Positions 13,042-62,003 of a stretch of 64,000 bases of DNA are shown here, one piece after another. The notes beneath the pieces were generated by a model. The model was not told where the DNA came from and ran no database searches. It was given only the letters and a program-made list of their open reading frames with translations. A program made the translations under genes and the position numbers. The DNA is from Thermoproteota archaeon (GTDB lineage Archaea > Korarchaeota > Korarchaeia > B14-G2): NCBI GenBank assembly GCA_037917675.1, contig JAVCBW010000025.1:48289-112288 (forward strand), read 5' to 3'. The number at the start of each line of letters is the position of its first letter. Within the stretch, counting starts at the first letter, position 1.

Positions 13042-14448
13042 TTGTGGGATGTAGTTATTGTGGGATCTGGTCCTACAGGGATATTTACAGCATATGAGCT
13101 TGTAACAAGATCTGATAAGCTTAAGATAGCTATCCTGGAGAGAGGTAGAGATCTTAATAAGAGAGCGTGTCCGATGTTCTTAGGAGAAAGATGCAAGAGA
13201 TGTAAGCCCTGCCACATGGTCTCTGGCTATGGGGGGGCTGGAGCTTTCTCTGATGGCAAGCTTAACTTATCCCCTGATGTGGGAGGGAGGCTTCTAGAGT
13301 ACATTGGACGAAGGGAGCTGACTGAGCTCATAAGATATGTGGATAGCATTTACATCAAGTTCGGTGCACCTACTGAGCTCTATGGGACAGATACTGATAG
13401 AATAGAGCAACTTAGGAGAGAGGCATTAAGGGAAAACTTGAGGCTACTAGTGTTTCCAGTAAGACATATGGGAGAGAAAAGTAGGGATGTCTTAGAGAAC
13501 CTCAAGAAGTATCTTGAAAACAAGGGGGTTGAGTTCTACTTTGAGACAGACGCAAAGGATGTAATAGTTGGTGGAGGAAAAGTAGAGGGAGTCGTGTCAT
13601 CTGATGGAGAAGAGTTTAGATCAAGATATGTCGTCTTAGCACCAGGAAGATCAGGAGCATCTTGGCTTAGAAGGGTAGCGAAGAAGCTTGGGATAGAGGT
13701 CTATAATGATACTGTCGATATTGGAGTTAGAGTCGAGGTACCAGCTGAGATCATGGAACCCTACACGAGTGTACTCTATGAGCCAAAATTCATATATTAC
13801 ACTAAGTCTTTCGATGACAAAGTGAGAACTTTCTGTGTTTGTCCTCATGGTGAAGTCATCACAGAGGTCCATGATGGAGTAGTGACAGTTAATGGGCAGA
13901 GCAGAACAGATAACATGACGAAGAGCACAAACTTTGCCGTGTTGGTTAGCACTAGATTTACAGAGCCATTTAGAGACCCCATTTCATATGCTCTCGACAT
14001 CGCAAGGCTAGCCAACAACATAGCAGGGAATAGGCCGATAATACAGAGGCTTGGAGACCTTTTAAGAGGGAGGAGGTCAACATACGAGAGAATAGAGAGA
14101 AGCATAGTTATTAGGACGCTTGAAGACGTCACACCAGGAGACTTAAGCTATGTCCTTCCATATAGATACCTTAGGAATATAATTGAGATGTTAGAGCAAC
14201 TTAACAAGGTGATGCCAGGAGTCTATTCAGATCATACACTCCTATATGGAGTTGAGATAAAACTATACTCATCTAGCTTAAAGCTGAAGAGTACTCTTGA
14301 GACCGAGATCAGAAACCTCTATGCCGGCGGAGATGGGGCAGGAGTGTCTAGGGGGCTTGTCCAAGCTTCAGCTTCAGGAGTCATAATAGCTAGGTCGATC
14401 CTGGAGAAAGAAGGCTATACTCAACCTAATGGGGGCGCTGGGATTTGA
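13042..14448 (+). CDS. NAD(P)/FAD-dependent oxidoreductase
   Basis: GSGPTG, GGAGAFSDGKL, RTFCVCPHG, GDGAGVSRG; 3' end overlaps tRNA-Pro antisense. Confidence 0.9.
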   Translation: MWDVVIVGSGPTGIFTAYELVTRSDKLKIAILERGRDLNKRACPMFLGERCKRCKPCHMVSGYGGAGAFSDGKLNLSPDVGGRLLEYIGRRELTELIRYVDSIYIKFGAPTELYGTDTDRIEQLRREALRENLRLLVFPVRHMGEKSRDVLENLKKYLENKGVEFYFETDAKDVIVGGGKVEGVVSSDGEEFRSRYVVLAPGRSGASWLRRVAKKLGIEVYNDTVDIGVRVEVPAEIMEPYTSVLYEPKFIYYTKSFDDKVRTFCVCPHGEVITEVHDGVVTVNGQSRTDNMTKSTNFAVLVSTRFTEPFRDPISYALDIARLANNIAGNRPIIQRLGDLLRGRRSTYERIERSIVIRTLEDVTPGDLSYVLPYRYLRNIIEMLEQLNKVMPGVYSDHTLLYGVEIKLYSSSLKLKSTLETEIRNLYAGGDGAGVSRGLVQASASGVIIARSILEKEGYTQPNGGAGI

Positions 14449-14518
14449 ACCCAGGTCTCCAGCTCCCGAGGCTGGAAGGATAGGCCACTGTAGCTAGAGG
14501 TAGCTACCCCACGCCCCC
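14430..14518 (-). tRNA. tRNA-Pro(CGG) with ~14-nt D-loop intron (14488-14501)
   Basis: Cloverleaf CCAGC-CT CGG GA-GCTGG; intron central helix GTAG/CTAC. Confidence 0.9.
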
Positions 14519-14577
14519 AGGATAGCGTGCTGCTTATAGGTATAAAAGCTTCTCACAGCAGCCTGCTCTACTGTGGG

Positions 14578-15099
14578 TTAAAGCTGTAGGAGATGAGACT
14601 TCAAGCTTACAAACTCCTTCCTCAAATCCTCTGCTATAGTGCTTAGAGAGGAGGAAATCACCTTTGTGTCTGCTATGACTGGCATGAAATTTGTGTCACC
14701 AGCCCATCTCGGTACTATGTGGACATGGAGGTGGTCTTCAATACCTGCTCCAGCAAGCCTCCCGAGATTTAGCCCTATGTTGAAGCCATCAGGGCGATAC
14801 TTCTTTGAGAGTATTCTGACAGATTCCCTAATTAGCCTCCACATAGACTTTACTTCGTCATAGGATAATGACAAGAGATCGCTGATATGTCTTGTTGGAG
14901 CGACCATTAGATGACCAGGATTATATGGATACTTGTTTATGATGACTAGCGCGTGCTCATCGATGTAGAGAAGCAAACTTTTATCTCCGCTTTTAGCAGC
15001 TGCATCACAGAAGATGCAGCCTCTATCTATACCTCTACTTATCTCCTCTATGTATTGTCTCCTCCAAGGAGCCCATAGCCTCTTAATCAAGCCCCCCAC
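14578..15099 (-). CDS. HIT-family hydrolase
   Basis: LWAPWR, NKYPYNPGH, HLHVHIVPRW. Confidence 0.92.
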   Translation of the reverse strand: MGGLIKRLWAPWRRQYIEEISRGIDRGCIFCDAAAKSGDKSLLLYIDEHALVIINKYPYNPGHLMVAPTRHISDLLSLSYDEVKSMWRLIRESVRILSKKYRPDGFNIGLNLGRLAGAGIEDHLHVHIVPRWAGDTNFMPVIADTKVISSSLSTIAEDLRKEFVSLKSHLLQL

Positions 15100-15436
15100 C
15101 TTGAATGATTAGTATTGCTTCAGCCAGATCCCCTTTAGCCTTCTTCAAGGCATTTATAGCACTATCTCTGCTACATCCCGTCTGCTCTACTATGAGCCTT
15201 ATGTCCTCTTCATCTATCTCAAGCTCCTCTTCCATCTCCCTTCTGACAGGTGTGCCAACTATCTGCCACTGCTCCAGATCCTTCAGCTTGATAATAGAGA
15301 CTGTAGGTGCCTCAAAAAAGTATTCAGCATCCTTAGTCTTTATGATAGCGTACTCTACATCCTTAACCTCGGTTATACTCATGCCCATCTGTTTCATGAG
15401 CCTTCTGAGCTGACGTGGGGCTAGACCGCGAGTCAT
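15083..15436 (-). CDS. nac: Nascent polypeptide-associated complex protein
   Basis: LMKQMGM; C-terminal UBA-like EEDIRLIVEQTG...GDLAEAI. Confidence 0.9.
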   Translation of the reverse strand: MTRGLAPRQLRRLMKQMGMSITEVKDVEYAIIKTKDAEYFFEAPTVSIIKLKDLEQWQIVGTPVRREMEEELEIDEEDIRLIVEQTGCSRDSAINALKKAKGDLAEAILIIQGGGLD

Positions 15437-15505
15437 CTACCGCACCTGACACTTATAGGAGAGCCAAATTTAAGTTGAGATAGCTAGCACCATAGTGGTG
15501 AGTAT

Positions 15506-16012
15506 GTGTTCGAATGTGAAGTCTGCGGCAGGCAAACTGATAAAGTTATCAAGAGGCAGATTGAGGGGACCACAGTTTCTGTATGCCCCGCATGCGCAAG
15601 GTATGGAAGTAGTGTGAGCTTATTTGCTATGAAGAAAAGAGAGGCAAGACAGAGGAGGCGCCATGTTCAGGCGAGAAGGCGTAAGCTACATGCAGTGAAG
15701 GACTTGTATGAGAGGTATGAGGTCGTTGAAAACTACCATCTTATCATAAGGAGGAGGAGAGAAGAGCTTGGGATGAAGCAGAAAGACTTTGCAAAGAGAC
15801 TTGGAATAAAAGAGTCGATGCTACAGAAGATGGAGGCAGGGAAGTTTATACCTGATATACCGACATGTATGAAGATAGAGGCGATACTTGGCGTCAAGAT
15901 ACTGAGAGAAGCTGTAGACGAAGAGGTTTTAGCTAGGTTTGAGGGAAGGGCTGAAGTAGAACCCACGATAGGTGAGGTTCTCGAGATAAAGAGGAGAAAA
16001 GCAGGGAAGTAA
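15506..16012 (+). CDS. mbf1: Multiprotein bridging factor aMBF1
   Basis: N-terminal CEVCG..CPAC Zn ribbon plus C-terminal HTH. Confidence 0.9.
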   Translation: MFECEVCGRQTDKVIKRQIEGTTVSVCPACARYGSSVSLFAMKKREARQRRRHVQARRRKLHAVKDLYERYEVVENYHLIIRRRREELGMKQKDFAKRLGIKESMLQKMEAGKFIPDIPTCMKIEAILGVKILREAVDEEVLARFEGRAEVEPTIGEVLEIKRRKAGK

Positions 16013-16075
16013 GTTAGGCAGTTGACGATCAGGTAAGGTTAAGTATCATAGGAGCTTATCATAGTAGGGAGAGAT

Positions 16076-16597
16076 ATGAAGAACAACAGACTAGCAGAGC
16101 TCATAACGCTTCTGGTTAACGGCCATGGTGACGAGGAAATTCTGAGAGTAAGCAATGTGCTACTAAGGGGGGAAGCTGAGGAGAGAAGGATAGCTGAAGC
16201 TGCAAATCTTAAACTTCAATTCGTGAGGAGGGCGCTCTATAAGCTCCATGAAAACCACATCGTGAAGTATAGGAAGGTCAAGGATAATGAGAAGAAGTGG
16301 TACGATGTCTTCTGGGAGCTTGATATAGAGGGGCTTAAGATGAGCTTGCGTAAGAGAGCAAATAACGTCATAGAAACACTAACACGCAAGCTTAAGTATG
16401 AAAAAGGCAACATAATCTATGCGTGTATAAGCGATGAATCCCATCTAAGGGTATCACTTGAGCAAGCAGCTGAAAGAGACTTTAACTGCCCTATATGTGG
16501 TTCCCCCCTATATCCGAGTAATAGCGAGAAAGTTATCAATAGGCTTGAGGATGTGATCAATAAACTTGAGCATATAGAGATGTTTGTGAGGAGGTAG
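16076..16597 (+). CDS. tfe: Transcription factor E alpha
   Basis: wHTH VRRALYKLHE..YRKVKD..WY; FNCPICGSPL. Confidence 0.88.
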   Translation: MKNNRLAELITLLVNGHGDEEILRVSNVLLRGEAEERRIAEAANLKLQFVRRALYKLHENHIVKYRKVKDNEKKWYDVFWELDIEGLKMSLRKRANNVIETLTRKLKYEKGNIIYACISDESHLRVSLEQAAERDFNCPICGSPLYPSNSEKVINRLEDVINKLEHIEMFVRR

Positions 16598-16601
16598 CAG
16601 C

Positions 16602-17285
16602 ATTAGGATAACCATAGCAGATAGACTAGACATTCTTAGCTGGAGGATAGCTAAAAAGGCTTCCAGAGACTTCAAGCTATACTTAGAGAAGCTAGCAGAG
16701 AACCTCAAGATAGATGAGATTAATGTCAGAGAGTACCATGGGTGGATAGATGTAGATGTGTGGGGAGAAGACGATGAAGCTTTTTGCAACTTTCTAAGCG
16801 TCAGATTTGGGAGAGTAAAGAGGATGAGAGAGGTTAAGGAGAGGGAGGCTGCTAGAGGAGTCTTTCTAGTGAGCGAGAAGGCAGAGGAAGTCGTAGGTAA
16901 GGTGTTCTTAGAGGGTAAGCCAGTACAGCTAGCTAGCAGAGGGGAAGCTAGAGGAATCCTTGAAGAAGCTTGGGTACCTATGTGGATACGAGTTTTAAGG
17001 GAGGGTAAAGAAATGCATGCTCTGCTACATGAAAGGCAAGCTAGATTCTATAGGAAAATAGCCATTGGAGGGTATGTGCAGGTTGTCATAAATGGAGTTG
17101 TATCAGAAGTAGAGAAGAGGTTGCATATGTCTGGATGCAGGGGGTTCAGGGATGGCGCATTAGTCTATCAGCTTATCTGCCCAGAGAATAGCATAGCAGA
17201 CATAATAGGCCTCTTAAGAGCAGAGAAAGCCTATAGGTTTGTAGTCATACGCCCTCGAGAAATCCTTAAGTACCTAACTAGATAG
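16602..17285 (+). CDS. DUF2110-like hypothetical protein, probable ATT/ATA start
   Basis: Open frame from 16590; GWIDVDVWGEDDEAFCNFL; typical position after tfe; RBS GGAGGT before ATT 16602. Confidence 0.6.
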   Translation: MRITIADRLDILSWRIAKKASRDFKLYLEKLAENLKIDEINVREYHGWIDVDVWGEDDEAFCNFLSVRFGRVKRMREVKEREAARGVFLVSEKAEEVVGKVFLEGKPVQLASRGEARGILEEAWVPMWIRVLREGKEMHALLHERQARFYRKIAIGGYVQVVINGVVSEVEKRLHMSGCRGFRDGALVYQLICPENSIADIIGLLRAEKAYRFVVIRPREILKYLTR

Positions 17286-17295
17286 GTGTATTGGA

Positions 17296-17406
17296 GCCGG
17301 GGTGCTCTAGAGGGTTGACCGGAGAGCCTGGTAGGAGGCAGAGGAGCCTAAGCCTGCTAAGCCTGTGGCCCTTGTGGCCGCGTGGGTTCAAATCCCACCC
17401 CCGGCG
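17296..17406 (+). tRNA. tRNA-Ser(GCT) with two introns (17311-17326 at 15/16; 17342-17351 at 29/30)
   Basis: Long variable arm; intron helices CTCT/GGAG and AGGC/GCCT. Confidence 0.9.
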
Positions 17407-17414
17407 CTTAAAGT

Positions 17415-17500
17415 GGGCCGGTGGTCTAGGGGTATGACTCAGCTGGCATGAAGCCGCCCTCACGAGGCGGAGGTCGAGGGTTCGAGTCCCTCCCGGCCCA
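17415..17500 (+). tRNA. tRNA-Val(CAC) with 14-nt intron at 25/26 (17439-17452)
   Basis: CCGCC-CT CAC GA-GGCGG; helix TATG/CATG. Confidence 0.92.
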
Positions 17501-17543
17501 CTATAGGTGTGCTGCTGCTATACTACCTGTTACGTACTAAGTG

Positions 17544-17862
17544 GGCAGCGGTGGCCCCCTCAGGTGGATGAGGCTTCCCTTAGCCAGAGGCAACGTGAGG
17601 GTGATTCCACCCCTTACCTGAGAACGCCTAGTGTCCGCCTTAGGAGTGCTCTCTTCCGAGCCTCCTCCGGTTCGGCGGCAAGGAGTAGGGTGGCTCCTCT
17701 CCAGGAGCTCCTACTCCTCCACAGGCCCCTCAGGCGGTAGCTTCATCACCCCCTCACGTGCATAGCTAGGGGAGGCCTCACCGCCCTTCGGGTTCATCTG
17801 GCCCCAGCTTAGTCTTCTGGTTACAGGGGGCGACTACACCCCCGGCCCTACCCACCGCTGCC
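17544..17862 (-). ncRNA. ffs: Signal recognition particle (7S) RNA
   Basis: Terminal helix GGCAGCGGTGG/CCACCGCTGCC, Alu-like 5' domain with TGTAA, helix 8 AGGCTC-GGAA-GAGAGCA; ~320 nt GC-rich. Confidence 0.9.
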
Positions 17863-17884
17863 TCTCTTCCATGGGGGAGGGGGG

Positions 17885-17892
17885 CTTATATA
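17885..17892 (-). promoter_or_regulatory. TATA box of SRP RNA
   Basis: TATATAAG about 25 nt upstream of the RNA 5' end. Confidence 0.6.
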
Positions 17893-17899
17893 GCTTCCG

Positions 17900-18664: not shown

Positions 18665-18705
18665 AGCACCTTCAGTTATAAGTGTGGGGCATCAGGTTGA
18701 TAAGG

Positions 18706-19404: not shown

Positions 19405-19452
19405 AATGCGGGTATTATATGGGAACTCGGCTCTTAGCTAAATGGGAGGATT

Positions 19453-23411: not shown

Positions 23412-23525
<114 letters not shown>

Positions 23526-24222: not shown

Positions 24223-24321
24223 AGCCCCGGGTGGGCTTTGAACCCACGACCTGCGGCTTACAAGGCTCGGCTAGAATCCGCCGCTCTGCCAGCTGAGCTC
24301 ACCCTGCAATGCCACCGGGGC
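24223..24321 (-). tRNA. tRNA-Thr(TGT) with two introns (24300-24313 at 8/9; 24266-24277 at 30/31)
   Basis: GCGGC-CT TGT AA-GCCGC after splicing; helix CGGC/GCCG; U73. Confidence 0.85.
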
Positions 24322-24405: not shown

Positions 24406-24493
24406 AGCCGCGGGCGGGATCCTCTATAGGAATTCGAACCCGCGACCTCCGGCTTACCAAGCCGGCGCTCTAACCAGGCTGAGCTACCGCGGC
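24406..24493 (-). tRNA. tRNA-Thr(GGT) with 13-nt T-loop intron (~59/60)
   Basis: CCGGC-TT GGT AA-GCCGG; insertion TTCCTATAGAGGA in T-loop. Confidence 0.9.
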
Positions 24494-26437: not shown

Positions 26438-26538
26438 GGGCCCGTAGCTCAGCTAGGATCAGTAGATAGAGTTAGAGCGGGGGCCTCCTAACAGTGGAAG
26501 ATAGCCCCAGGTCGAGGGTTCAAGTCCCTCCGGGCCCG
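26438..26538 (+). tRNA. tRNA-Arg(CCT) with D-loop intron (~13 nt) and 12-nt 37/38 intron
   Basis: GGGGC-CT CCT AA-GCCCC after splicing; G73. Confidence 0.88.
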
Positions 26539-31572: not shown

Positions 31573-31685
31573 CGGGCCCGGCGGGACTTGAACCCGCGCA
31601 CATGGCTTTCTTCAGCCACCGGAGGCCACCGCTCTACTCTATCTATGAGCCTCTTTCGAGAGGATCCTAGCTGAGCTACGGGCCC
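31573..31685 (-). tRNA. tRNA-Arg(CCG) with 28-nt D-loop intron and 11-nt 37/38 intron
   Basis: GTGGC-CT CCG GA-GCCAT after splicing. Confidence 0.88.
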
Positions 31686-31733
31686 TATCTTTAAATCTCT
31701 CCTAGGGTCGTAATAAGATTTCTGGGGGGTTCT

Positions 31734-33080
31734 ATGAGTAGTCTTTGGAGACGTATTGGTGCACACAGCCATATCAGGGGGCTTGGTGTTGAGGGTATAG
31801 AGCCTAAGCCCATTGCTGACGGGATGGTTGGGCAGATTAAGGCTAGGAAGGCTGCGGCAATAATAGCTAAAATGATTTCAAGAGGAGTAATGGCTGGAAG
31901 AGCTATATTGCTTGCCGGGCCTCCAGGAACAGGTAAGACGTCGATTGCTGTTGGATTGGCTAAGGAGCTGGGAGTAGATGTCCCATTTGTCCAGATATCT
32001 GGTAGTGAGATATACAGCAGCGAGCTCAAGAAGACAGAGGTTCTCATGAGAGCCATGAGGAAGGCTATTGGAATTAAGATACATGAGCGAAGGAAGATCT
32101 ATGAGGGAGTTGTTGTAGAGCTCAATATCAACATGGTTCAAAGCCCATATAACCCGTATCAGAGGATCCCAGAATCCGTGAGATTGACTCTCAGAGCAGG
32201 AGAGGAGAGAGAGAAGCTTAGGGGAGATAGGAGTATAGCTGAGCAGATTATAGCACAGGGCATATCAGAGGGAGATGTCATAATGATAGATTCTGAGACT
32301 GGAAGAGTCATTAGAGCAGGGAGATGCAGCGAGTACGCAGAGGAAAAATATGAGGTAAGCAGTGAAAAGCTTGTTCCAGTACCTCCTCCACCAGTGCTTA
32401 AAGAGAAGGAGTTCGTATATACGATGACCCTCCATGACTTGGATGAAATGGAGGCTGGACGGTCTAGAGGAGTATTTAGCTTGCTATTCGGTGGGGGAGA
32501 AGAGAAGGAGATAAGCCCTGATGTGAGAGCTGCTGTCGATGAGCGGGTGAAAAAGCTTGTAGAGAACAGGGGGGGAGATAGATGGGCGGAAATAGTGCCA
32601 GGGGTCCTCTTCATAGAGGAAGGACACATGCTCGATATAGAGGCTTTCTGCTTCCTCAACAGAGCTATTGAAAGCGAGCTGGCACCGATAGTCATAATAA
32701 CAACAAACAGGGGGGTGACTAAGATCAGAGGAACCGACATAGAAGCACCACATGGAATGCCTCTTGACTTACTGGATAGACTATTCATAATAACAACAGA
32801 TACCTATAGCGAGGAAGAAGTAGAGGCTATCATAAAAGAGAGAGTCAAAGTGGAGGGAGTCAGGATGGATGATGAGGCACTTGCAGTCCTAACTAAGCTT
32901 GGGGTTGAAAAATCGCTAAGGTATGCCATCCAGCTTATAGCACCAGCATATGAAGTAGCTAGAGCTAAAGGAAGAGACGTAATAGTCAGAGATGATGTTG
33001 AAGATGTCGCAGAGCTCTTCTCAGATGTCAAGAGGAGCGTGAGCCACCTTAAGAAGTATGAGAGGGAGCTTCTAGCATAG
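31734..33080 (+). CDS. TIP49/RuvB-like AAA+ ATPase
   Basis: RIGAHSHIRGLG, GPPGTGKT, PHGMPLDLLDRL, SLRYAIQL. Confidence 0.95.
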   Translation: MSSLWRRIGAHSHIRGLGVEGIEPKPIADGMVGQIKARKAAAIIAKMISRGVMAGRAILLAGPPGTGKTSIAVGLAKELGVDVPFVQISGSEIYSSELKKTEVLMRAMRKAIGIKIHERRKIYEGVVVELNINMVQSPYNPYQRIPESVRLTLRAGEEREKLRGDRSIAEQIIAQGISEGDVIMIDSETGRVIRAGRCSEYAEEKYEVSSEKLVPVPPPPVLKEKEFVYTMTLHDLDEMEAGRSRGVFSLLFGGGEEKEISPDVRAAVDERVKKLVENRGGDRWAEIVPGVLFIEEGHMLDIEAFCFLNRAIESELAPIVIITTNRGVTKIRGTDIEAPHGMPLDLLDRLFIITTDTYSEEEVEAIIKERVKVEGVRMDDEALAVLTKLGVEKSLRYAIQLIAPAYEVARAKGRDVIVRDDVEDVAELFSDVKRSVSHLKKYERELLA

Positions 33081-34090: not shown

Positions 34091-34175
34091 TGCTCCGGGC
34101 GGGATTCGAACCCGCGCTAGCGGCTTTCTCCTTCTCGAGAGGCCGCCGTGCTTGGCCTGGCTACACTACCGGAGC
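34091..34175 (-). tRNA. tRNA-Glu(CTC) with 10-nt 37/38 intron (34126-34135)
   Basis: GCGGC-CT CTC GA-GCCGC; helix CTCT/GGAG. Confidence 0.92.
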
Positions 34176-38676: not shown

Positions 38677-38761
38677 TGGGCCGGGAGGGACTCGAACCCT
38701 CGACCTCCGCCTCGTCAGGACGGCTTCATGCCACTGAGTCATACCCCTAGACCACCGGCCC
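38677..38761 (-). tRNA. tRNA-Val(GAC) with 13-nt intron at 25/26
   Basis: CCGTC-CT GAC GA-GGCGG; intron TCAGTGGCATGAA. Confidence 0.92.
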
Positions 38762-38841: not shown

Positions 38842-38932
38842 TGGTGGACCGGGCGGGATTTGAACCCGCAACCTCCGCGACTATGCCTACATGATGCCAA
38901 CGCGGCGCGCTACCAGGTTGCGCCACCGGCCC
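38842..38932 (-). tRNA. tRNA-Ala(GGC) with 14-nt anticodon-loop insertion; CCA encoded
   Basis: G3.U70 pair; CCGCG-TT GGC A..-CGCGG; BHB helix weak. Confidence 0.82.
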
Positions 38933-39521: not shown

Positions 39522-39902
39522 GTGGCTGAGATGATGAGAATACTTAAGAAAATTTTTTCAAGGAGAGAGGAAGAGATGGAAGTCGAGGAGAGGAGAGAAG
39601 ACAGTGCCCTAGAGCTTGCATATGATGCAGTAGTAGTTATCAAGCCCATGAAACTAAGGGACATAACTGATGTAGATAACATAGTGGAGGAAGTTAGGAG
39701 CGGGAATATCTTACTAATAGACATAGCTCCACTTGCAGAAAGAAACCCAGAGGAGCTACAGAGCGCAGTAAAACAAATAAAAACGCTACTATCCACGATG
39801 GGGGGAGAGCTAGTTGCCCATCAGCATAAGTCAGAGTATCCCATCCTACTAGCTACACCATCATTCGTTAAGGTGTGGAGAAGAGGGAGAGAAAGAAGTT
39901 AG
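39522..39902 (+). CDS. sepF: Cell division protein SepF
   Basis: DVDNIVEEVRSGNILLIDI..MGGEL..ILLATPSFVKVWR. Confidence 0.82.
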   Translation: MAEMMRILKKIFSRREEEMEVEERREDSALELAYDAVVVIKPMKLRDITDVDNIVEEVRSGNILLIDIAPLAERNPEELQSAVKQIKTLLSTMGGELVAHQHKSEYPILLATPSFVKVWRRGRERS

Positions 39903-44779: not shown

Positions 44780-44854
44780 TGCGGCCGCCGGGATTCGAAC
44801 CCGGGTCACCGGCTCGGGAGGCCGATGTCCTAGACCAGGCTAGACGACGGCCGC
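44780..44854 (-). tRNA. tRNA-Gly(CCC), intron-less
   Basis: Standard 75-nt cloverleaf TCGGC-CT CCC GA-GCCGG. Confidence 0.95.
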
Positions 44855-44913: not shown

Positions 44914-45015
44914 TGGTGCCGTGGGCCGGACTTCCACCTAGTTTTGAACCGGCGACAACGCGGTCTTCAGCCACGCGTTAACATCGCGCGCTCTCCCAGG
45001 CTGAGCTACCACGGC
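44914..45015 (-). tRNA. tRNA-Phe(GAA) with 13-nt 30/31 and 12-nt 59/60 introns; CCA encoded
   Basis: Helices CGCG/CGCG and TTCA/TGGA. Confidence 0.9.
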
Positions 45016-45102: not shown

Positions 45103-45187
45103 TGGGCCGGGAGGGACTCGAACCCTCGACCTCCGCCTCGTAAGGGCGGCTTCATGCCACTGAGTCATACCCCTAGACCACCGGCCC
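45103..45187 (-). tRNA. tRNA-Val(TAC) with 13-nt intron at 25/26
   Basis: CCGCC-CT TAC GA-GGCGG; intron identical to Val(GAC). Confidence 0.92.
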
Positions 45188-52003: not shown

Positions 52004-52099
52004 CGGGCCCGGAGGGACTCGAACCCTCGACCCCCGGGTTTAGGTCTACAACTCCCCTGACTAAGAGCCCGGTGCTCTACCTAACTGAGCTACGGGCCC
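52004..52099 (-). tRNA. tRNA-Lys(CTT) with 22-nt anticodon-loop insertion (possibly nested introns)
   Basis: CCGGG/CCCGG stem enclosing a 29-nt loop starting CTCTTA; G73. Confidence 0.8.
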
Positions 52100-52844: not shown

Positions 52845-52941
52845 TGGACCGGGCGGGATTTGAACCCGCGGCCTCCGCGTGCCCCGGAGAGATGCGATAC
52901 CGCTACCAGCGCGGCGATCTACCAGGCTGATCTACCGGCCC
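52845..52941 (-). tRNA. tRNA-Ala(CGC) with 11-nt 32/33 and 12-nt 37/38 introns
   Basis: G3.U70; helices CCGC/GCGG and CTCG/CGGG. Confidence 0.88.
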
Positions 52942-55816: not shown

Positions 55817-57215
55817 CTTCCTCTAGAGTTTTCTCAAACATTTCCATGAACTTTTCAGCAAGTGCGCGTGGTATCTGGCCGCCAGCAGCTTGAGTATGCC
55901 CTCCTCCTTCACCACCTAGCTTGCTACATATCTCACGCATGATAGTTCCTAAGTTCGGGGAGGTCCTTCCAGGAGTTAGCCTGGCAGATATCTTCACCTT
56001 TTCATTATCTGATCTAGCTAGCCCAATCACAGCGACAGCATAGCTGAACTCTCTGAAGCCACTCATTATAGTCGTCACAGTACTGATGATCGTATCCTTT
56101 ATGTCTGAAGATCCTAGTAGAAAGACAGCTTTACCAGCTTTCACTATCCTGCTCTCCCTGTTAGACATAAGCAGAGATATCGCTCTCCTTAGGTCCTCTC
56201 TGTATGCTGATAAAGCCTCTCGACATTTGTCTGCGTAGAGCCTAGGAGATATCGAGGCCAAGATGGCTATAGACCCTTGTTCTGTCTTTCCACATGCGTT
56301 AAGCATCTCACTCATGTTTCTCAGGTCATGAAAAACATTGAAGCTGGATTTCTCAGTTATAGGGTAGGTGTAGCCGAAAATGCTCTTTGCTTCATCTTCA
56401 CTTAACCCAACAGCTATCATGTATTTTACAAGCTCTGTTGCTAACCTCCTCTTCTCCGAGTCACTTAGGTCAGAGAGCCTAGTCCATCTCTCCTCCTTAA
56501 ATGGTGGTATCCCGAGGTCATATAGGAACTTGTAGCAGCGGCTTTCATCTCCAGTCAGCCCTGGTATGAATGGGTTGCTTGTATTCAGTAGAGCAAATAG
56601 CAGAGGAGTGCTGCTGCCACCAGACAACCTTAAACCTAGCTTCTGCTCGACAACACCAAGCTTCAAGCATTCTTCTAGTATTTCTCTGTTAACCCCAAGA
56701 AAGCTCCCCTTCTCGCCTTTATCTTGGAGATCTCCTATAGCACCAGCTAAGGCTAATACGGCGCTATCAGGGTCCTCCTTTAGAACAGAGAAAACCAGAT
56801 AGGTTAGGCCTGAGCTGCTTACCTCTAGTCCCCCATTCACACCATACATCCAGGCATTGATATGTACTACACTTCTCTCCTGGCTTAGACTAGGTGGCTG
56901 ATGGTGGTCTATTATGATAGTCGGCTTGCCTATCTTTGATAAGGCATCAATGTGAGATGAGCCTAGGTCTAGGAGGAGGAAAACATCATATGCTGAAGCT
57001 CCTGTAGAGGCTATTGCTGAAACCATGTTCCTTTCAAGCTGCTTAATTGGAGTATAGTGGAAGAAGAGGCCCTTCTTGAAGAGGTATCGACAAGCTATTC
57101 CAGCAGATGACAGGCCATCAGCATCTATGTGAGATAACACCCTAATACAGCTTGCCCCACTTAGAACATCTTCAACTCTGCCTGCTACATCAGCTAGCTG
57201 TTCTCTTATTTCCAT
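55803..57215 (-). CDS. RecJ-like DHH phosphoesterase
   Basis: HIDADG, DLGS, IDHH, GGGHTQAAG; downstream of uS15. Confidence 0.9.
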   Translation of the reverse strand: MEIREQLADVAGRVEDVLSGASCIRVLSHIDADGLSSAGIACRYLFKKGLFFHYTPIKQLERNMVSAIASTGASAYDVFLLLDLGSSHIDALSKIGKPTIIIDHHQPPSLSQERSVVHINAWMYGVNGGLEVSSSGLTYLVFSVLKEDPDSAVLALAGAIGDLQDKGEKGSFLGVNREILEECLKLGVVEQKLGLRLSGGSSTPLLFALLNTSNPFIPGLTGDESRCYKFLYDLGIPPFKEERWTRLSDLSDSEKRRLATELVKYMIAVGLSEDEAKSIFGYTYPITEKSSFNVFHDLRNMSEMLNACGKTEQGSIAILASISPRLYADKCREALSAYREDLRRAISLLMSNRESRIVKAGKAVFLLGSSDIKDTIISTVTTIMSGFREFSYAVAVIGLARSDNEKVKISARLTPGRTSPNLGTIMREICSKLGGEGGGHTQAAGGQIPRALAEKFMEMFEKTLEEVSQQ

Positions 57216-57232
57216 ATAGGGATCCTCAGCCT

Positions 57233-57676
57233 TCAGATGGTTAAGTGTTGCCTGAGATCCCAGTCTGGTGGCAGAACCCCCTCACGCTTATAGTACTTTA
57301 CTAGCCTCCTTATCTTAGCTTCTACAAGCTGGAGGTTCCTCTTGTTATGGATATCCTTTCCATGCTCCTTAAGATGCCTCATTATCCTCCTAGCCTTATT
57401 TATGAGATTAGCTAGATCCTCGGGGACTTGTGGAGCTAAGCCATGTTTTTCTAGTATCTTAGTGAGCTTTACACCAAGTACTCGCTTGACGAGAGGGATG
57501 CCGTAGCTGTCTCTCAGGATCAGCCCTATTCGGGATGGAGGAACCCCTCTCTTGGCTAAATCTACGATTACCTCCTCTATTTCAGCTGCTTTCATCCTAG
57601 TCCAGCTAGGAACCACTGTTGGAGGTGGCCTATTGGAGTGAGACTGACCCTTTCTCCTAGCGTGCATCCTGCCCAT
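57233..57676 (-). CDS. rps15: 30S ribosomal protein uS15
   Basis: GRMHARRKGQS, IGLILRD, VPEDL, RRLVKYYK. Confidence 0.96.
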   Translation of the reverse strand: MGRMHARRKGQSHSNRPPPTVVPSWTRMKAAEIEEVIVDLAKRGVPPSRIGLILRDSYGIPLVKRVLGVKLTKILEKHGLAPQVPEDLANLINKARRIMRHLKEHGKDIHNKRNLQLVEAKIRRLVKYYKREGVLPPDWDLRQHLTI

Positions 57677-57684
57677 TCTTTCCC

Positions 57685-58257
57685 TCACTTAGCCCATTTC
57701 CGTGATGATATATATGCTGCTAGCTTCCTTAATGCTTTAGCCCTATGGGACACTCTGTCTTTTAGAGCCCCCAGCTCGGCATATGTCTCGCCAGAAGACT
57801 CCAGCGGAACAAATATGGGGTCAAAGCCCCAGCCTGCATTTCCACGCTCCTTTAAAGCGATGTAGCCTTTTACCTCTGCCTCTATCACATGGGTTCTGTC
57901 AGATGGATCCACTACTGCGAGAACAGATCTAAATTTCGCTCTTCTATCTTTTACTCCACTCATAATCTTGAGTATGCCATCGCATCCGAGGGTCTTGTAT
58001 ACATATGATGAGTATGGGCCAGGGAATCCATTTAGTGCATGGATCTCTAGAGCAGAGTCCTCTATGAAAAATGGTCGGTAACTGAGCTCCTTGGACAGCA
58101 GTCTAGCACTACTCACTGCAACTTCCCTTATGCTAGGCTTCTGAAGCTCAGGGTACTCTCTTAGCTCGATGTTCACGAGAATGCCTAGAGATTCGAGGAT
58201 TCGCTTGCATTCAGTAGCCTTATTCCTATTAGAAGTGACAAAGAGGATCGCTTTCAA
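57685..58257 (-). CDS. XTP/dITP diphosphatase (Ham1/RdgB)
   Basis: TSNRNK, EDSAL, GFPGPYS, GFDPIF, SHRAKA. Confidence 0.94.
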   Translation of the reverse strand: MKAILFVTSNRNKATECKRILESLGILVNIELREYPELQKPSIREVAVSSARLLSKELSYRPFFIEDSALEIHALNGFPGPYSSYVYKTLGCDGILKIMSGVKDRRAKFRSVLAVVDPSDRTHVIEAEVKGYIALKERGNAGWGFDPIFVPLESSGETYAELGALKDRVSHRAKALRKLAAYISSRKWAK

Positions 58258-58877
58258 GACCTATACCTCCCTCTAAGATATATGTCATAGGCTCTTCTCA
58301 ATATAGCTGCTGCGTCTCCTCTTGTCTCAGCATACCCTCTGTTAAATGCAGCTATCCCATCATGATATACTTCAGGATGTGTAGAGTCCATACACCGGTA
58401 GAAGAGATGTATGTCCTCACCCTGGTCTTCAACTCTCTTAGAATAGAAGCTAAGGCCGAAATCTATCAAGTAAAGCCTTCCCTTAGACAAAATGACATTT
58501 GATGTAGTTAAGTCGCCATGGACTATCCCTGTGGAGTGCAGCTTCCCAATCATTGCCCCAAGATCTCTTAGAAGCGTGACATTGGCTCTAGATAACACAG
58601 TCTTCAGAGTTTGCCCTGGGATGTACTCCATGACTATGGTAGCTTTATCTAGGTCAATGTATAGGACAGCAGGGCATAGGACACCAGCCTGCTTAGCATC
58701 ACACATAATCTTAGCCTCTACAACAGTTCTATGCTTCCTTAGCCACTCGTCTAGCTCTTTTACCCTATATCGCTTAGACCTCCTCACCTTGAAGACAGAT
58801 GGTATACCTAGGAACATGCCTTTGATAAGGATTGCCTCAGCCCCAGCAGCTATGACCTGACATTTAGCTATCTCCAA
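58254..58877 (-). CDS. bud32: KEOPS kinase Bud32
   Basis: GAEA, HGDLTTSN, IDFGL, RGRY. Confidence 0.94.
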   Translation of the reverse strand: MEIAKCQVIAAGAEAILIKGMFLGIPSVFKVRRSKRYRVKELDEWLRKHRTVVEAKIMCDAKQAGVLCPAVLYIDLDKATIVMEYIPGQTLKTVLSRANVTLLRDLGAMIGKLHSTGIVHGDLTTSNVILSKGRLYLIDFGLSFYSKRVEDQGEDIHLFYRCMDSTHPEVYHDGIAAFNRGYAETRGDAAAILRRAYDIYLRGRYRS

Positions 58878-59572
58878 CCTTCCTTCCCTCTTAATGGGAC
58901 AAATGCTACTATACCAGCCTTCTTGGTAGATATAGAGCCGCTAGGCTCCTTCTTAACTACAAGGAGCTCCTGCCCCCACAGTGAGTAGGGAGAGCCTATA
59001 GGTATTACCATTAAGCCACCGGGAGCCAGTTGATCTACTAGTGGCGGAGGGACTCTCGGTGCGGCAGCAGTTACTAGGATTCTATCGTATGGGGCATGAG
59101 AAGGATACCCCATACTTCCATCACCAATTACCACAATAACTCTATCAGAATAGCCAGCAGACCTGAGGTTCTGGATTGCACGGCGAGCTAGCACCTCATC
59201 TATCTCTATGGAATACACTACACCCCACCTAGACCTATCTACGTCAGAGGGAGCAACTATCTCCGCAATCGTAGCTGCATGGTAGCCGCTCCCAGTCCCA
59301 ACCTCTAAAACTTTCATGCCAACATCAAGCTCTAAAAGCTCGTTCATCAGACAGACCATGTCTCGCCCGGCCTAGCAGCCGTGTGGCGCGCTTATGGTCT
59401 GCCCTCTCCCTATGGGAAGTGGCGTGTCCTCATATGCTTGCTCTCTCAAATCTTCCGGGACAAAGAGCTCCCGTTTAACCCTCAAAAAAGCCCTTTTCAC
59501 TTTCTCAGTTCTTATAAAGCCCTCAGCCTGCAGTAGCCTACATAACCTAGCTCTTCTGTCATCAAAGCTCAC
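58868..59572 (-). CDS. pcm: Protein-L-isoaspartate O-methyltransferase, two exons (59383-59572, 58868-59361)
   Basis: RELFVP..AYEDTPLPIG.GQTISAPH | MV..VLEVGTGSGYHAA, APYDRILVTAAA; split by 21-nt insertion. Confidence 0.9.
59362..59382 (-). other. Putative BHB mRNA intron in pcm
   Basis: CGCC-AC^A-CGGCT-GCTA-GGCCG-GGCG-AG^A; in-frame TAG; removal restores His codon. Confidence 0.85.
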
Positions 59573-59620
59573 ATGCACCCCCAGAACATTTATGTTCAAC
59601 CCTAAAATATTACTCTGGGG

Positions 59621-60043
59621 ATGCTGAGAGAAGAGATAATAGCCTGGGGACACCCTAATATATCTGCTAGGCACAAGACGACATTCCAGCTAACAAAAGA
59701 TCGTGAGATAACGAGGAAAGCAGACTGTATAATAGGAGTTAATGCTGACAAGGCATGCATAGATCTGAGAAGAGAGATGAAGCAGCACATAAGGTCAGGA
59801 GGGTGGCTCAGGATAAGAATACAGGCTGGCGAGCTTTCTGATGAGCTTATAGCTAGGGGAGCTAGGGGAGCGCCTCTTACTAGTGAGAAGGACATTGTAG
59901 TCAGAAAGTCAGCATACGTAGATGAGAGGACAATAGCAATAGAGGCAAGCAAAGCAGCCATAGAAATAGATAGAAGGCTAATCGGCCTAGCTAGAAAGCC
60001 AGATACTATCATCAGGGTCGTGCTAGAAGCTATTGTGCTATGA
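59621..60043 (+). CDS. DUF371 family protein
   Basis: GHPNISARHKTT, DCIIGV, VVRKS. Confidence 0.88.
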   Translation: MLREEIIAWGHPNISARHKTTFQLTKDREITRKADCIIGVNADKACIDLRREMKQHIRSGGWLRIRIQAGELSDELIARGARGAPLTSEKDIVVRKSAYVDERTIAIEASKAAIEIDRRLIGLARKPDTIIRVVLEAIVL

Positions 60044-60099
60044 TCAGCAGATCTTCTACAGATGCTAACTTTTAAAACTACATTGTTAATAGCTAAGGT

Positions 60100-60219
60100 G
60101 GGCCCGTAGCTCAGCCTGGATGCAGGGGTGATTGGAGCGCCCGATAAGTGAGGTGAAGCTGATAACCGGGAGTGTACTGATGTACACCGAGGTCGAGGGT
60201 TCAAGTCCCTCCGGGCCCA
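60100..60219 (+). tRNA. tRNA-Ile(GAT) with three introns (60120-60131 D-loop; 60144-60157 at 30/31; 60173-60191 at 45/46)
   Basis: Removal gives a 75-nt cloverleaf; helices GCCT/GGGT, CGCC/GGTG, CGGG/ACCG. Confidence 0.9.
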
Positions 60220-60222
60220 CTG

Positions 60223-60639
60223 GTGTTAACATTGAGGAGAAAGAAGCCGCTTATATTAGACTCTAGCTTATTGATAGCTATGGCTGAGAAGAGAAATCTA
60301 AGCTTGGATAGAGTTTTCGAGGATGTACTCTGTGACTTCAAGCTTGCGACGACAGCCTCCGTAGTGGAGGAGCTGAGGGAGATGGCTTCAGGTAAGGGGA
60401 GCCGGGCACTAAAGGCAAGAGTAGCGCTCACCATTGCTGGGAAGCTTAAGATATTCGATAGCATATCAAAGGATGCTGATACAGATGTTATAGAGGTAGC
60501 TGCTAAGCTGGGAGGCGTTGTAGCCACATGCGACCTCGAGCTGAGGAGAAAAGCCATGAGGAAAAGGGTACCTACGCTCTACCTTAGAGGTGGAAAAAGA
60601 CTTATGATTGATAACACGTTGGGAAGCTACCTCCCCTAG
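60223..60639 (+). CDS. PIN-domain protein (Fcf1/Utp24-like)
   Basis: ILDSS, VVEEL, DADT, VATCDLELR; precedes rpoE1. Confidence 0.82.
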   Translation: MLTLRRKKPLILDSSLLIAMAEKRNLSLDRVFEDVLCDFKLATTASVVEELREMASGKGSRALKARVALTIAGKLKIFDSISKDADTDVIEVAAKLGGVVATCDLELRRKAMRKRVPTLYLRGGKRLMIDNTLGSYLP

Positions 60640-60655
60640 ATTCAGGTGTTAGAGG

Positions 60656-61192
60656 ATGTTTTACATAGCGACATTTAGAGACACTGTTGAAGTCGAGCCT
60701 CATGAGCTAGGAGGGGAGCTTGGTAAGGTTATGCTAGAGAGGCTTAGAAGAAGATATTCAGATAGGTTTATCCCTGGAATAGGCTATATAGTTGAGGTGC
60801 TGAATGCAAGGAGGGAGAAATTCGGTAGAGCATCCCCCTTCGATGGAAACATATACTTTAAGGTGATGTTTGAAGCACTGATATTCATGCCTGAGCTCAT
60901 GGAGATAGTTGAGGGAGAAGTCGTCTCAGTTGTGGATTATGGGATATTCGTGGATCTCGGAGCTGTGCGCGCATTAGTGCATATATCACAGCTCGCAGAC
61001 GATTACTTCAGCTATGATGGAAAGAACCTCGTTGGAAAAAAGGTCACCTTTAGCGTTGGAGACATTGTGAGAGGGCGTATCATAGCTATATCTAAGTCTC
61101 GTGAAAGGGGTGAGAAGGTGAGGCTTAGAGTCAATCTCACATGCAGGCAACCTGGGCTAGGTAAAGTAGAGGTGGAACAGAGTGAGACTTAA
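60656..61192 (+). CDS. rpoE1: RNA polymerase subunit Rpo7 (E')
   Basis: EIVEGEV..YGIFV..LVHISQ, TCRQPGLGK. Confidence 0.93.
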   Translation: MFYIATFRDTVEVEPHELGGELGKVMLERLRRRYSDRFIPGIGYIVEVLNARREKFGRASPFDGNIYFKVMFEALIFMPELMEIVEGEVVSVVDYGIFVDLGAVRALVHISQLADDYFSYDGKNLVGKKVTFSVGDIVRGRIIAISKSRERGEKVRLRVNLTCRQPGLGKVEVEQSET

Positions 61193-61370
61193 GGCATGTA
61201 AATCTTGTAGGTCCATAGTGGTAGATGGAGACAAGTGCGGTAAGTGTGGGTCTACGCAGCTCACACACAACTGGGATGCCCTTTTTATATTACTCAACCC
61301 AGAGAAATCTGAGCTTGCTAAAAAGCTTAGCGTAAACATAGAGGGAGCTTATGCTCTGCTGGTGAAGTGA
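61182..61370 (+). CDS. spt4: Transcription elongation factor Spt4
   Basis: KACKSC..CGKCGS..PEKSELAKKL..GAYAL. Confidence 0.92.
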   Translation: MRLKACKSCRSIVVDGDKCGKCGSTQLTHNWDALFILLNPEKSELAKKLSVNIEGAYALLVK

Positions 61371-61371
61371 C

Positions 61372-61695
61372 ATGGAGGAGGCTATAGAGGTTGTTAGCAA
61401 GATTAGCAGGAAATCCATTCCCAGAAGGGAATATGAGCTGAGAGTGAAGCATACAGGTAGAGGGATTCCAAGCAGATCTGAGCTGAGAGAGCTCTTAATC
61501 CCAAAACTGCGAGAGAAACCAGATACAACTGTGATAGTTAAGATACTGGGAGAAACAGGGCTTCAGGAGTCTAGGGTAATAGTCCATGCATATGATAGCA
61601 AGAGCACAATGGAGCTCTTCGAGCCAGAGCACATTCTCAGAAAAAACTTCCAGGTAGGGGGAAAGGAAGAGGGGGGTGAGGGTGACGAAGGGTAA
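61372..61695 (+). CDS. rps24e: 30S ribosomal protein eS24
   Basis: RRE..H...PSR, HAYDS...[10 protein letters not shown]. Confidence 0.88.
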
Positions 61696-61852
61696 GAAGA
61701 CCAGCGCATACCGCTATTACCGGGTAGAAGAGGGGGAGCTGATCAGGTTAAATAGGAAGTGCCCTAGGTGTGGAAGTTTTCTAGCAGAACACGAGGACAG
61801 AAGATCCTGCGGGAAATGCGGATACACGGAGTTCAAGCAAACACAAGGATAG
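61682..61852 (+). CDS. rps27ae: 30S ribosomal protein eS31 (S27ae) (not in ORF track)
   Basis: [32 protein letters not shown]. Confidence 0.93.
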
Positions 61853-61892
61853 CGGTGATAAAGCTTAAAACAGCAGAAGCAATGTCTTCAAG

Positions 61893-62003
61893 GGGCCCGT
61901 AGCTCAGCTCGGATAGGGTCCTGAAGAGAGCGCCGAGCTTACGCGTAAGCCTGCGGAAGATGCGGCAAGCCGGAGGCCGAGGGTTCAAGTCCCTCCGGGC
62001 CCG
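61893..62003 (+). tRNA. tRNA-Arg(GCG) with three introns (61915-61926 D-loop; 61936-61948 at 29/30; 61957-61967 at 37/38)
   Basis: Removal gives a 75-nt cloverleaf; helices TCGG/CTGA, GCGC/GCGT, CTGC/GCGG. Confidence 0.9.

Follow-up and report, generated by a model that had tools for sequence, protein, structure and literature searches.

Introns in archaeal tRNA genes reach a mean of 0.21 per gene over 217 genomes and of 0.84 in the Thermoproteales, and the highest number on record is 71 introns in 46 genes in Pyrobaculum calidifontis (PMC8450103). Multi-intron tRNA genes have been described in the Thermoproteales Pyrobaculum, Thermofilum and Caldivirga (Sugahara et al., 2008; Fujishima et al., 2010; both via PMC4033280). 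Candidatus Korarchaeum cryptofilum was reported to combine non-canonical and multiple tRNA introns with a fused form of the splicing endonuclease EndA (Fujishima et al., 2011, PMC3239211; further sources are Fujishima and Kanai, 2014, PMC4033280, and Kaneta et al., 2018, PMC5829648). Here we analyzed the tRNA genes, and the short introns in them, of a stretch of 64,000 nucleotides (the window; GenBank assembly GCA_037917675.1, contig JAVCBW010000025.1, positions 48,289 to 112,288), which comes from a genome of the class Korarchaeia, in the following called G000 (62 contigs, 92.7% complete).

Between positions 14430 and 62003 the window contains 18 tRNA genes, 17 of which are interrupted by altogether 28 insertions of 10-28 nucleotides (nt). 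Most insertions are very short (23 of 28 within 10-14 nt), and the load amounts to 1.56 introns per gene. With the insertions removed, all 18 genes give canonical cloverleaves of 72-76 nt (85 nt for the class II tRNA-Ser(GCT)). The insertion sites are 8/9 (1), D-loop (6), 25/26 (3), 29/30 (2), 30/31 (3), 32/33 (1), 36/37 or 37/38 (8), 38/39 (1), variable region 45/46 (1) and 59/60 (3). A preliminary description of this DNA had counted 17 interrupted genes out of 18 and about 28 introns of 10-28 nt over 14430 to 62003; genes, introns and end coordinates all agree with our counts, and so does its list of positions, in which 15/16 corresponds to an intron counted here within the D-loop. Very likely these are working tRNA genes of an uncultured member of the Korarchaeia, most of which carry one to three protein-spliced micro-introns, accumulated in a lineage-specific manner. 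The genes and their predicted introns are:

14430..14518, minus strand: tRNA-Pro(CGG), 89 nt, one intron at 14488-14501 (14 nt, D-loop), perfect helix GTAG/CTAC
17296..17406, plus strand: tRNA-Ser(GCT), class II, 111 nt, introns at 17311-17326 (16 nt, D-loop) and 17342-17351 (10 nt, 29/30)
17415..17500, plus strand: tRNA-Val(CAC), 86 nt, one intron at 17439-17452 (14 nt, 25/26), starting 8 nt past tRNA-Ser(GCT)
23412..23525, plus strand: elongator tRNA-Met(CAT), 114 nt, introns at 23452-23476 (25 nt, 38/39, full bulge-helix-bulge motif plus inner helix) and 23498-23511 (14 nt, 59/60)
24223..24321, minus strand: tRNA-Thr(TGT), 99 nt, introns at 24300-24313 (14 nt, 8/9, helix with a single mismatch) and 24266-24277 (12 nt, 30/31)
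24406..24493, minus strand: tRNA-Thr(GGT), 88 nt, one intron at 24420-24432 (13 nt, T-loop 59/60), helix of three pairs plus a G.A mismatch
26438..26538, plus strand: tRNA-Arg(CCT), 101 nt, introns at 26459-26471 (about 13 nt, D-loop, boundary within 1-2 nt either way) and 26491-26502 (12 nt, 37/38)
31573..31685, minus strand: tRNA-Arg(CCG), 113 nt, two (possibly three) introns, at 31637-31664 (28 nt, D-loop) and 31608-31618 (11 nt, 37/38)
34091..34175, minus strand: tRNA-Glu(CTC), 85 nt, one intron at 34126-34135 (10 nt, 37/38)
38677..38761, minus strand: tRNA-Val(GAC), 85 nt, one intron at 38725-38737 (13 nt, 25/26)
38845..38932, minus strand: tRNA-Ala(GGC) with a G3:U70 pair, 88 nt, one intron at about 38881-38894 (14 nt, anticodon loop), no good bulge-helix-bulge motif, two helix mismatches
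44780..44854, minus strand: tRNA-Gly(CCC), 75 nt, the sole uninterrupted gene of the window, 100% identical in the same-genus genome
44917..45015, minus strand: tRNA-Phe(GAA), 99 nt, introns at 44972-44984 (13 nt, 30/31) and 44931-44942 (12 nt, 59/60)
45103..45187, minus strand: tRNA-Val(TAC), 85 nt, one intron at 45151-45163 (13 nt, 25/26)
52004..52099, minus strand: tRNA-Lys(CTT), 96 nt, one intron at about 52040-52061 (22 nt, 36/37 or 37/38, relaxed motif)
52845..52941, minus strand: tRNA-Ala(CGC) with a G3:U70 pair, 97 nt, introns at 52898-52908 (11 nt, 32/33) and 52881-52892 (12 nt, 37/38)
60100..60219, plus strand: tRNA-Ile(GAT), 120 nt, introns at 60120-60131 (12 nt, D-loop), 60144-60157 (14 nt, 30/31) and 60173-60191 (19 nt, variable region 45/46)
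61893..62003, plus strand: tRNA-Arg(GCG), 111 nt, introns at 61915-61926 (12 nt, D-loop), 61936-61948 (13 nt, 29/30) and 61957-61967 (11 nt, 37/38)

For the window, tRNA loci were pooled from a scan for T-arm (T-loop) motifs, from ARAGORN and from the Rfam tRNA model. Introns were placed with a purpose-written solver, for which a candidate insertion is one whose upstream exon tetranucleotide pairs with the tetranucleotide before the last two intron bases. This is the register of the bulge-helix-bulge (BHB) motif, in which each cut follows the second nucleotide of the bulge; the solver takes out as many as three or four candidates and scores the cloverleaf that remains. In this register 19 of the 28 window introns show a perfect central helix of four base pairs, and 27 do so if one mismatch is tolerated (eight introns with one mismatch; the intron of tRNA-Ala(GGC) has two), compared with 2.7% and 19.5% for insertions of the same length at other offsets of the same genes (n = 1608). 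Throughout G000, 46 of 61 introns have a perfect helix and 59 of 61 at most one mismatch, the introns of Ala-GGC and Ser-GGA failing with two mismatches each. The motif noted in the preliminary description, mostly a helix of four base pairs with cuts after the second bulge nucleotide, was thus found again in these numbers. The flanking helices are mostly short or absent, and most micro-introns are without an inner helix. Since a 10-nt intron leaves a loop of 6 nt closing the central helix, and the flanking helices are short or absent, the motifs are mostly of the relaxed type. The window insertions are predicted to be archaeal protein-spliced tRNA introns with BHB or relaxed BHB motifs. In the proposed pathway, an exon tetranucleotide just before the 5' splice site would pair with a tetranucleotide close to the intron's 3' end and leave two bulges of 3 nt, a strict or relaxed BHB. 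The sole EndA of the genome would then cut after the second nucleotide of each bulge, and the ligase RtcB would join the exons.

In its strict mode the solver proposes perfect helices only, so that the helix counts are partly built in. Evidence free of the motif was therefore sought as independent support in two other genomes, namely G004, a complete genome in one contig (1.59 Mb) from another family of the same class, and G001, an independent assembly from the same genus as G000. Every window tRNA has an intronless partner of the same anticodon in G004, 75-93% identical to the predicted mature sequence, and the spliced forms are collinear with these orthologs. When the unspliced genes were compared to their G004 partners by plain global alignment, about 11 of the 17 interrupted genes showed gaps of the expected length no more than about 3 nt away from the modelled intron sites. 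Written as position and length, gap and model are both (40,10) for Glu(CTC), and they are nearly the same for Thr(GGT) (gap (60,13), model (61,13)), Lys(CTT) (gap (37,22), model (38,22)) and Phe(GAA) (gaps (30,13) and (73,12), model (31,13) and (73,12)). The gaps of Thr(TGT) are (8,14) and (42,12) against a model of (8,14) and (44,12), those of Ile(GAT) are (20,12), (44,14) and (70,19) against (20,12), (44,14) and (73,19), and Arg(GCG), in which all three helices are perfect, shows gaps of (22,11), (43,13) and (64,11). The precursor of Ser(GCT) has a 16-nt gap 2 nt off the first modelled site and a 10-nt gap that coincides with the second, and its spliced form of 85 nt aligns to the intronless Ser-GCT of G004 without any gap.

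Full-length orthologs in G001 were recovered for 16 of the 18 window genes; those of Arg-CCG and Arg-GCG were not found among the G001 loci fetched. In the 15 interrupted pairs all 23 introns occupy the same sites. Differences between the two genomes are found in 81 of 322 alignment columns in introns (25%) and in 14 of 1205 in exons (1.2%), which means that change in the insertions is about 20 times as fast as in the exons around them. After splicing according to the model, the mature tRNAs agree at all but 5 of 1123 positions; ten of the 15 are identical and the other five differ at one or two positions each. Of the 23 introns, 12 show changes between the two species in the intron strand of the central helix, and in 11 of these 12 the pairing is equal or better (examples are CATG to CATA, TGGA to TGAA or TGAG, and CGGG to TGAG). 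Such fast change with kept pairing is the pattern expected of a sequence that is spliced out and constrained only by the helix. In single genes, the ortholog of Pro(CGG) is full length and 96.6% identical, Val(CAC) has an invariant exon part and a variable intron, Thr(GGT) differs at 5 of 13 positions in the intron and at none in the exons, and both central helices of Arg(CCT) are perfect in G001 (CTAG/CTAG and CTCC/GGAG).

These comparisons also bear on the possibility that some of the short insertions (especially in the D-loop and the variable region, and those of Ala-GGC and Lys-CTT, which fit the motif poorly) stay in the mature tRNA as expanded loops or leave by another route. The mismatched helices of the window introns, eight with one mismatch and one with two, would suit such a reading, as would the Ala-GGC insertion, for which there is no convincing BHB in either G000 or G001. 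We regard it as quite improbable, since a change about 20 times faster than in exons is unlike that of nucleotides kept in the core of a mature tRNA. Furthermore, 10 of the 28 window introns lie inside or at the edge of stems (25/26, 29/30, 30/31 and 8/9), where they would break the fold if retained, in Ile, Pro, Ser and Arg-GCG the helix of the D-loop intron is perfect, and the helices of Arg-CCT are perfect in G001.

The gene set of the whole genome was assembled from Rfam, ARAGORN, the motif scan and the solver, with hand parsing of Leu-TAA, Ser-CGA and the initiator. The T-arm scan of G000 with insertions in the T-loop allowed gave 718 start/end pairs with 614 distinct 3' ends, nearly all of them false, and was filtered to 55 regions. 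G000 has 46 tRNA genes, one per anticodon species; 39 of them (85%) are interrupted, by 61 introns in total (1.33 per gene), with one intron in 21 genes, two in 14 and three in 4. The term near-saturating, used in the preliminary description, suits the window with its 17 of 18 genes and 1.56 introns per gene but is less apt for the genome as a whole. The most frequent site is 37/38 with 18 introns; the other 43 lie in the D-loop (10), at 59/60 (8), 30/31 (6), 29/30 (5), 25/26 (3) and at further sites (11). Median intron length is 13 nt, and 51 of the 61 introns have at most 16 nt. Seven genes have no intron, namely Gly-CCC, Asp-GTC, Pro-TGG, Ser-TGA, Arg-TCG, Glu-TTC and Leu-CAG. No intronless duplicate copy was found among the 46 genes of this 92.7%-complete genome. 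TATA-like boxes at -40 to -16 precede 26 of the 46 genes, compared to 28 of 2000 random sites.

The interrupted loci could in principle be tRNA pseudogenes in decay, or artefacts from the assembly of a metagenome bin, as the fragmented assembly of 62 contigs and the low finder scores (9 of 18 window genes at the Rfam gathering score) might suggest. This is hardly credible for a full set of 46 species with one gene per anticodon and no intact spare copies, with promoter-like boxes upstream, and with the same interrupted structures in the independent assembly G001, where ten of the 15 predicted mature sequences are identical.

The default tools recover about half of such genes. ARAGORN with default settings found 8 of the 18 window genes, four of them with an anticodon differing from the gene model, and the Rfam model found 9 at its gathering score, with more weak or partial matches below it, as the preliminary description had anticipated in stating that standard annotation would miss many of these tRNAs. 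tRNA-Phe at 44917-45015 was recovered by the T-arm motif scan alone, being missed by both ARAGORN and Rfam. Among the mislabelled genes, ARAGORN reads Val(CAC) as Met(cat) and Val(GAC) as Ser(tga), and with introns allowed it reads Arg(GCG) as Phe(gaa). Because default finders miss genes of the G000 type or mislabel several of them (Val as Ser or Met, Arg as Phe), statements on completeness and codon usage of such bins will be wrong unless intron-aware tools are used. The initiator tRNA (G000:C60:4628-4757) is a further example; it has three introns, at 37/38 (12 nt), 52/53 (14 nt) and 59/60 (30 nt), and neither ARAGORN nor the Rfam model at E <= 1 detected it. Only two genes with a CAT anticodon were found in G000, the initiator and the elongator Met, and a tRNA-Ile(UAU) gene is located at G000:C60:23977-24110. 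G000 thus probably decodes AUA without a tRNA-Ile2(CAU). The use of tRNA-Ile(UAU) is shared with Korarchaeum, for which it has been reported (PMC8450103), as is the existence of non-canonical and multiple introns.

G000 is a korarchaeon of the class Korarchaeia and not a member of the Thermoproteales. It is placed outside the Thermoproteales because of the relatives of its EndA, its related genomes of the same class, the presence of SepF and FtsZ, and its fused EndA. The nearest EndA records are named Candidatus Korarchaeota archaeon, isolates Kor1 and Kor2, and Candidatus Methanodesulfokora; the comparison genomes comprise one of the same genus and 13 of another family in the same class (family f2). 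SepF is encoded in the window at 39639-39875 and two FtsZ-family genes were found in G000, both being absent from a Sulfolobus control.

Within the class the intron load is graded. G004 has 46 tRNA genes, 5 interrupted and 41 not, with 6 introns of 19-42 nt (0.13 per gene), which lie in Met, Tyr and Ile-UAU (anticodon loop), in Trp (two introns) and in Ser-CGA. In Candidatus Methanodesulfokora washburnensis, 5 of 48 hits are clearly over-long, 32 have 72-76 nt and 11 are of class II length. The more distant same-class genome G015 (isolate Kor1) gave about 41 hits, of which about 22 are interrupted by about 29 introns, or roughly 0.7 per gene, as counted by the uncurated solver on over-long hits only. 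G000 follows with 61 introns in 39 interrupted genes out of 46 (1.33 per gene). All 13 genomes of family f2 have many full-score tRNA hits of 72-76 nt, and the fewest hits at E <= 0.001 are found in G000 (32) and G001 (28). Nearly all of the rise within the class comes from micro-introns of 10-16 nt at non-canonical sites. G004 and G000 have in common the D-loop site of Trp and the long introns in the anticodon loops of Met, Tyr and Ile-UAU, whereas the micro-introns are not shared; sites common to G015 and G000 are 25/26 in Val-TAC, where the 12-nt intron of G015 has the same offset as that of G000, and, in Leu-GAG and Leu-CAA, one short intron each whose offset in the precursor matches.

We somewhat favor the interpretation that this stepwise, about ten-fold rise from 0.13 (G004) over about 0.7 (G015) to 1.33 (G000, with its sister G001) reflects a recent burst of intron gain, independent of that in the Thermoproteales and served by a single-chain fused EndA. 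The D-loop intron of Trp and the few long introns in the anticodon loop (Met, Tyr, Ile-UAU), which occur at the same sites in other Korarchaeia, would then probably be old, and about 50 micro-introns of 10-16 nt would have accumulated stepwise in this lineage. The opposite course, a high load ancestral to the Korarchaeia or to a wider group with the Thermoproteales, from which Korarchaeum-like lineages lost most introns without any independent burst, draws on the sites shared between G000 and G015 (Val-TAC 25/26, Leu-GAG and Leu-CAA), which indicate that part of the load predates the genus. Introns at 59/60, 29/30, 30/31 and in the D-loop also occur in the Thermoproteales. We consider this course unlikely, given that the load is stepped (6 introns in 46 genes in G004, about 29 in about 41 hits in G015 and 61 in 46 in G000) and that all 13 family-f2 genomes are rich in full-score hits of 72-76 nt. 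The introns of G004 all have at least 19 nt, against at most 16 nt for 51 of the 61 in G000, and gaining about 50 introns in one lineage is more parsimonious than losing them all precisely in several.

A single EndA gene was identified in G000 (contig C1), in which both matches to the catalytic domain, PF01974, and the sole match of the genome to the N-domain, PF02778, lie in one open frame of 377 codons; the open reading frame of 367 residues contains PF01974 twice and PF02778 once. A gene for a second EndA subunit (separate alpha or beta) gave no further match in the 92.7%-complete genome. Residues 187-364 match the crenarchaeal catalytic alpha subunits of Aeropyrum pernix and Pyrobaculum aerophilum (E 9e-32 to 7e-30), with 3p1z_B, 3ajv_B and 2zyz_B as the best solved relatives, and Y306, H314 and K345 are invariant in 10 homologues. 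In an alignment to 1a79, the N-terminal unit has a proline at the position of the histidine of Methanocaldococcus jannaschii EndA, and the catalytic Tyr-His-Lys triad lies in one unit of the protein only. An insert of about 10 residues (about 221-232) contains a Lys-Pro that is conserved in 8 korarchaeal-type EndA sequences, the insert being gapped in 2 of Methanosarcinaceae type. K222 aligns with the lysine of the 'EKPR' loop of A. pernix (3p1z_B), a lysine described as required for broad substrate specificity; relaxed motifs are the substrates thought to need this specific loop (PMC6379350). An RtcB gene is present at C1:67297-68601 (574 bits).

With these features the enzyme is of the korarchaeal fused alpha2 type with a specific loop, as proposed for K. 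cryptofilum (Fujishima et al., 2011). Its N-terminal structural unit and its C-terminal catalytic unit with the lysine-bearing loop would presumably assemble as a homodimer that cuts strict as well as relaxed motifs. The heteromeric, broad-specificity EndA by which the preliminary description had framed the intron density does not apply here, since structural and catalytic units form one chain and separate alpha and beta genes were not found. To the Korarchaeota-named and related homologues (P0004-P0011) the protein is only 42-47% identical, and to the EndA of G015 53%.

Several points weigh against this interpretation as a whole. The splice sites are predictions, with boundaries soft by a few nucleotides for Lys-CTT, Thr-GGT and the D-loops of Arg-CCT and Arg-CCG, and the helices of Ala-GGC and Ser-GGA have two mismatches and no convincing pairing. 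The solver selects for BHB helices, and the helix statistics are not fully independent of the model; in the motif-free alignment to G004 the gaps are split or shifted in 6 of the 17 genes (Pro-CGG, the three Val genes, Arg-CCG and Ala-GGC). G000 itself is fragmented and incomplete (62 contigs, 92.7%). The G015 counts come from an uncurated solver applied to over-long hits only, and intron loss in the other family, which we consider unlikely, would give the same pattern. For the enzyme, broad specificity of the korarchaeal EndA is given as an expectation and not as a result (PMC3239211).

Compared to the Thermoproteales, the tRNA genes of G000 are similar in having at most three short BHB or relaxed BHB introns per gene, in more than 80% of genes being interrupted, in introns lying mostly at non-canonical sites (43 of 61), in the failure of standard finders and in a density of the same range (1.33 against a mean of 0.84). 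G000 differs in belonging to the Korarchaeia, with FtsZ and SepF, in an EndA of one fused chain instead of the separate alpha and beta subunits of an (alpha-beta)2 enzyme, and in that among its 46 genes no split or permuted tRNA was seen and the sign of intron spread between unrelated tRNAs is weak. With K. cryptofilum it shares the class and an enzyme in which a catalytic unit of the (alpha-beta)2 lineage is fused behind a structural unit and the loop is present. The difference to Korarchaeum is one of scale, as the papers mention 'a tRNA' with such introns and the complete same-class genome G004 has 6 introns in 5 of its 46 genes, while G000 has 39 interrupted genes of 46 and 61 introns. The epsilon2 EndA of ARMAN-2 is likewise a fused multi-unit enzyme with a lysine-bearing extra loop and goes along with non-canonical introns (PMC3239211; PMC12397907), but ARMAN-2 belongs to the DPANN archaea and its enzyme has three units and an unrelated loop sequence, whereas that of G000 has two units and a loop of crenarchaeal type.

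The suggestion in the preliminary description that this SepF-containing lineage might be an independent case is supported by its placement in the Korarchaeia, outside the Thermoproteales. As an extreme case it stands above the Thermoproteales mean of 0.84 and below the record of P. calidifontis. Its novelty lies in the density, the lineage itself having already been reported, for Korarchaeum, as a home of non-canonical and multiple introns with a fused EndA (PMC3239211). A literature search on tRNA introns in Korarchaeia and Korarchaeota returned, for the library covered, no report of a high intron load in this class. What is new is the amount of introns and its distribution within the Korarchaeia; gene structure and enzyme type were already known. 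The density is near the archaeal record, in a lineage for which only a low level had been reported before. Heavy disruption of tRNA genes has so far been treated as a hallmark of the Thermoproteales and their heterotetrameric endonuclease, and G000 represents a second intron-rich lineage. The fused, loop-bearing EndA of this second lineage supports the loop, and not the arrangement of subunits, as the feature that permits introns to spread. If the burst of gain is real, the way in which archaeal tRNA introns are gained could be traced from one site to the next along the natural series that the graded relatives form, and the co-evolution idea, in which the specific loop rather than the subunit architecture sets the intron load, becomes directly testable.

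Several of the window genes show further details. The three Val genes share an intron at 25/26, whose sequence is similar to that of the D-loop and 3' D-stem in the Val genes of G004, and it looks as if the intron arose by local duplication of this segment. A D-loop intron in place of the 25/26 intron was ruled out for these genes, as the stretch that would be removed is invariant in G001 and the 25/26 segment varies. The 59/60 introns of the elongator Met(CAT) (23498-23511) and of Ala(TGC) (G000:C56:841-940) are identical at 12 of 14 positions, and the T-arms of the two genes are identical, which hints at intron spread or gene conversion between unrelated tRNAs. Over the genome, 41 intron pairs reach at least 70% identity, against 3-15 in shuffles. 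Large-scale intron transposition is not claimed, the similarity beyond the three Val paralogs and the Met/Ala-TGC pair being modestly above that of the shuffles. The Met-CAT gene of G004 has a single intron of 29 nt in the anticodon loop. Reading the CAT gene at 23412 as a Pro(GGG) with three introns was dropped in favor of the two-intron Met parse with its full BHB.

In tRNA-Ala(CGC) the helix at 37/38 (CTCG/CGGG) is perfect only with the 32/33 intron already removed, so that an obligatory order of splicing is suggested, in which the 32/33 intron would leave first and the 37/38 intron second. In G001 the intron strand of this helix changes from CGGG to TGAG with pairing kept. G3:U70 is the identity pair of tRNA-Ala. 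The alternative parse of the gene at 52845 as a Thr(GGT) with one 23-nt intron was dropped, since G3:U70 marks it as Ala and the two-intron parse gives two perfect helices. The insertion of Ala(GGC) is at the same place in G001, where its 3' part differs at four positions. In Arg(CCG), the D-loop insertion of 28 nt resembles a 13-nt intron of the Arg(CCT) type plus an internal perfect hairpin of 15 nt; it may be a nested intron, an expanded one or two introns, in which case the window total would be 29. The only strong TATA-like box at this locus (31573-31700) ends about 5 nt upstream of the gene start, nearer than in a usual archaeal promoter. Adjoining Arg(CCG) is a gene for a TIP49 (RuvBL-like) AAA+ ATPase at 31734-33080, a eukaryote-like protein (PF06068, E 9e-132).

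The genes of Ser(GCT) and Val(CAC) (17296-17500) lie 8 nt apart on the same strand, with no TATA-like box before Val, and are probably expressed as one transcript. A parse of Ser(GCT) as class I with three introns was ruled out by the G004 ortholog, which has 85 nt and is collinear. Directly after Val(CAC) follows the gene of the signal recognition particle RNA (17549-17857, minus strand). The tRNA genes of G000 are strongly clustered. The 64-kb window, which represents 3.6% of the genome, contains 18 of the 46, and a span of about 77 kb on contig C41 (33673-110291) contains 20. They are interspersed with genes of replication, translation and RNA processing, namely PolB, a Rad50-like SMC, HerA, aRF1, a Pelota-like protein, FttA and TruD. 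In G004, likewise, most tRNA hits are located between 1.0 and 1.59 Mb of the 1.59-Mb contig. At the left end of the group, an open reading frame of 468 residues for an oxidoreductase dependent on flavin adenine dinucleotide (13042-14448, plus strand) overlaps the 3' end of tRNA-Pro(CGG) on the minus strand by 19 nt.

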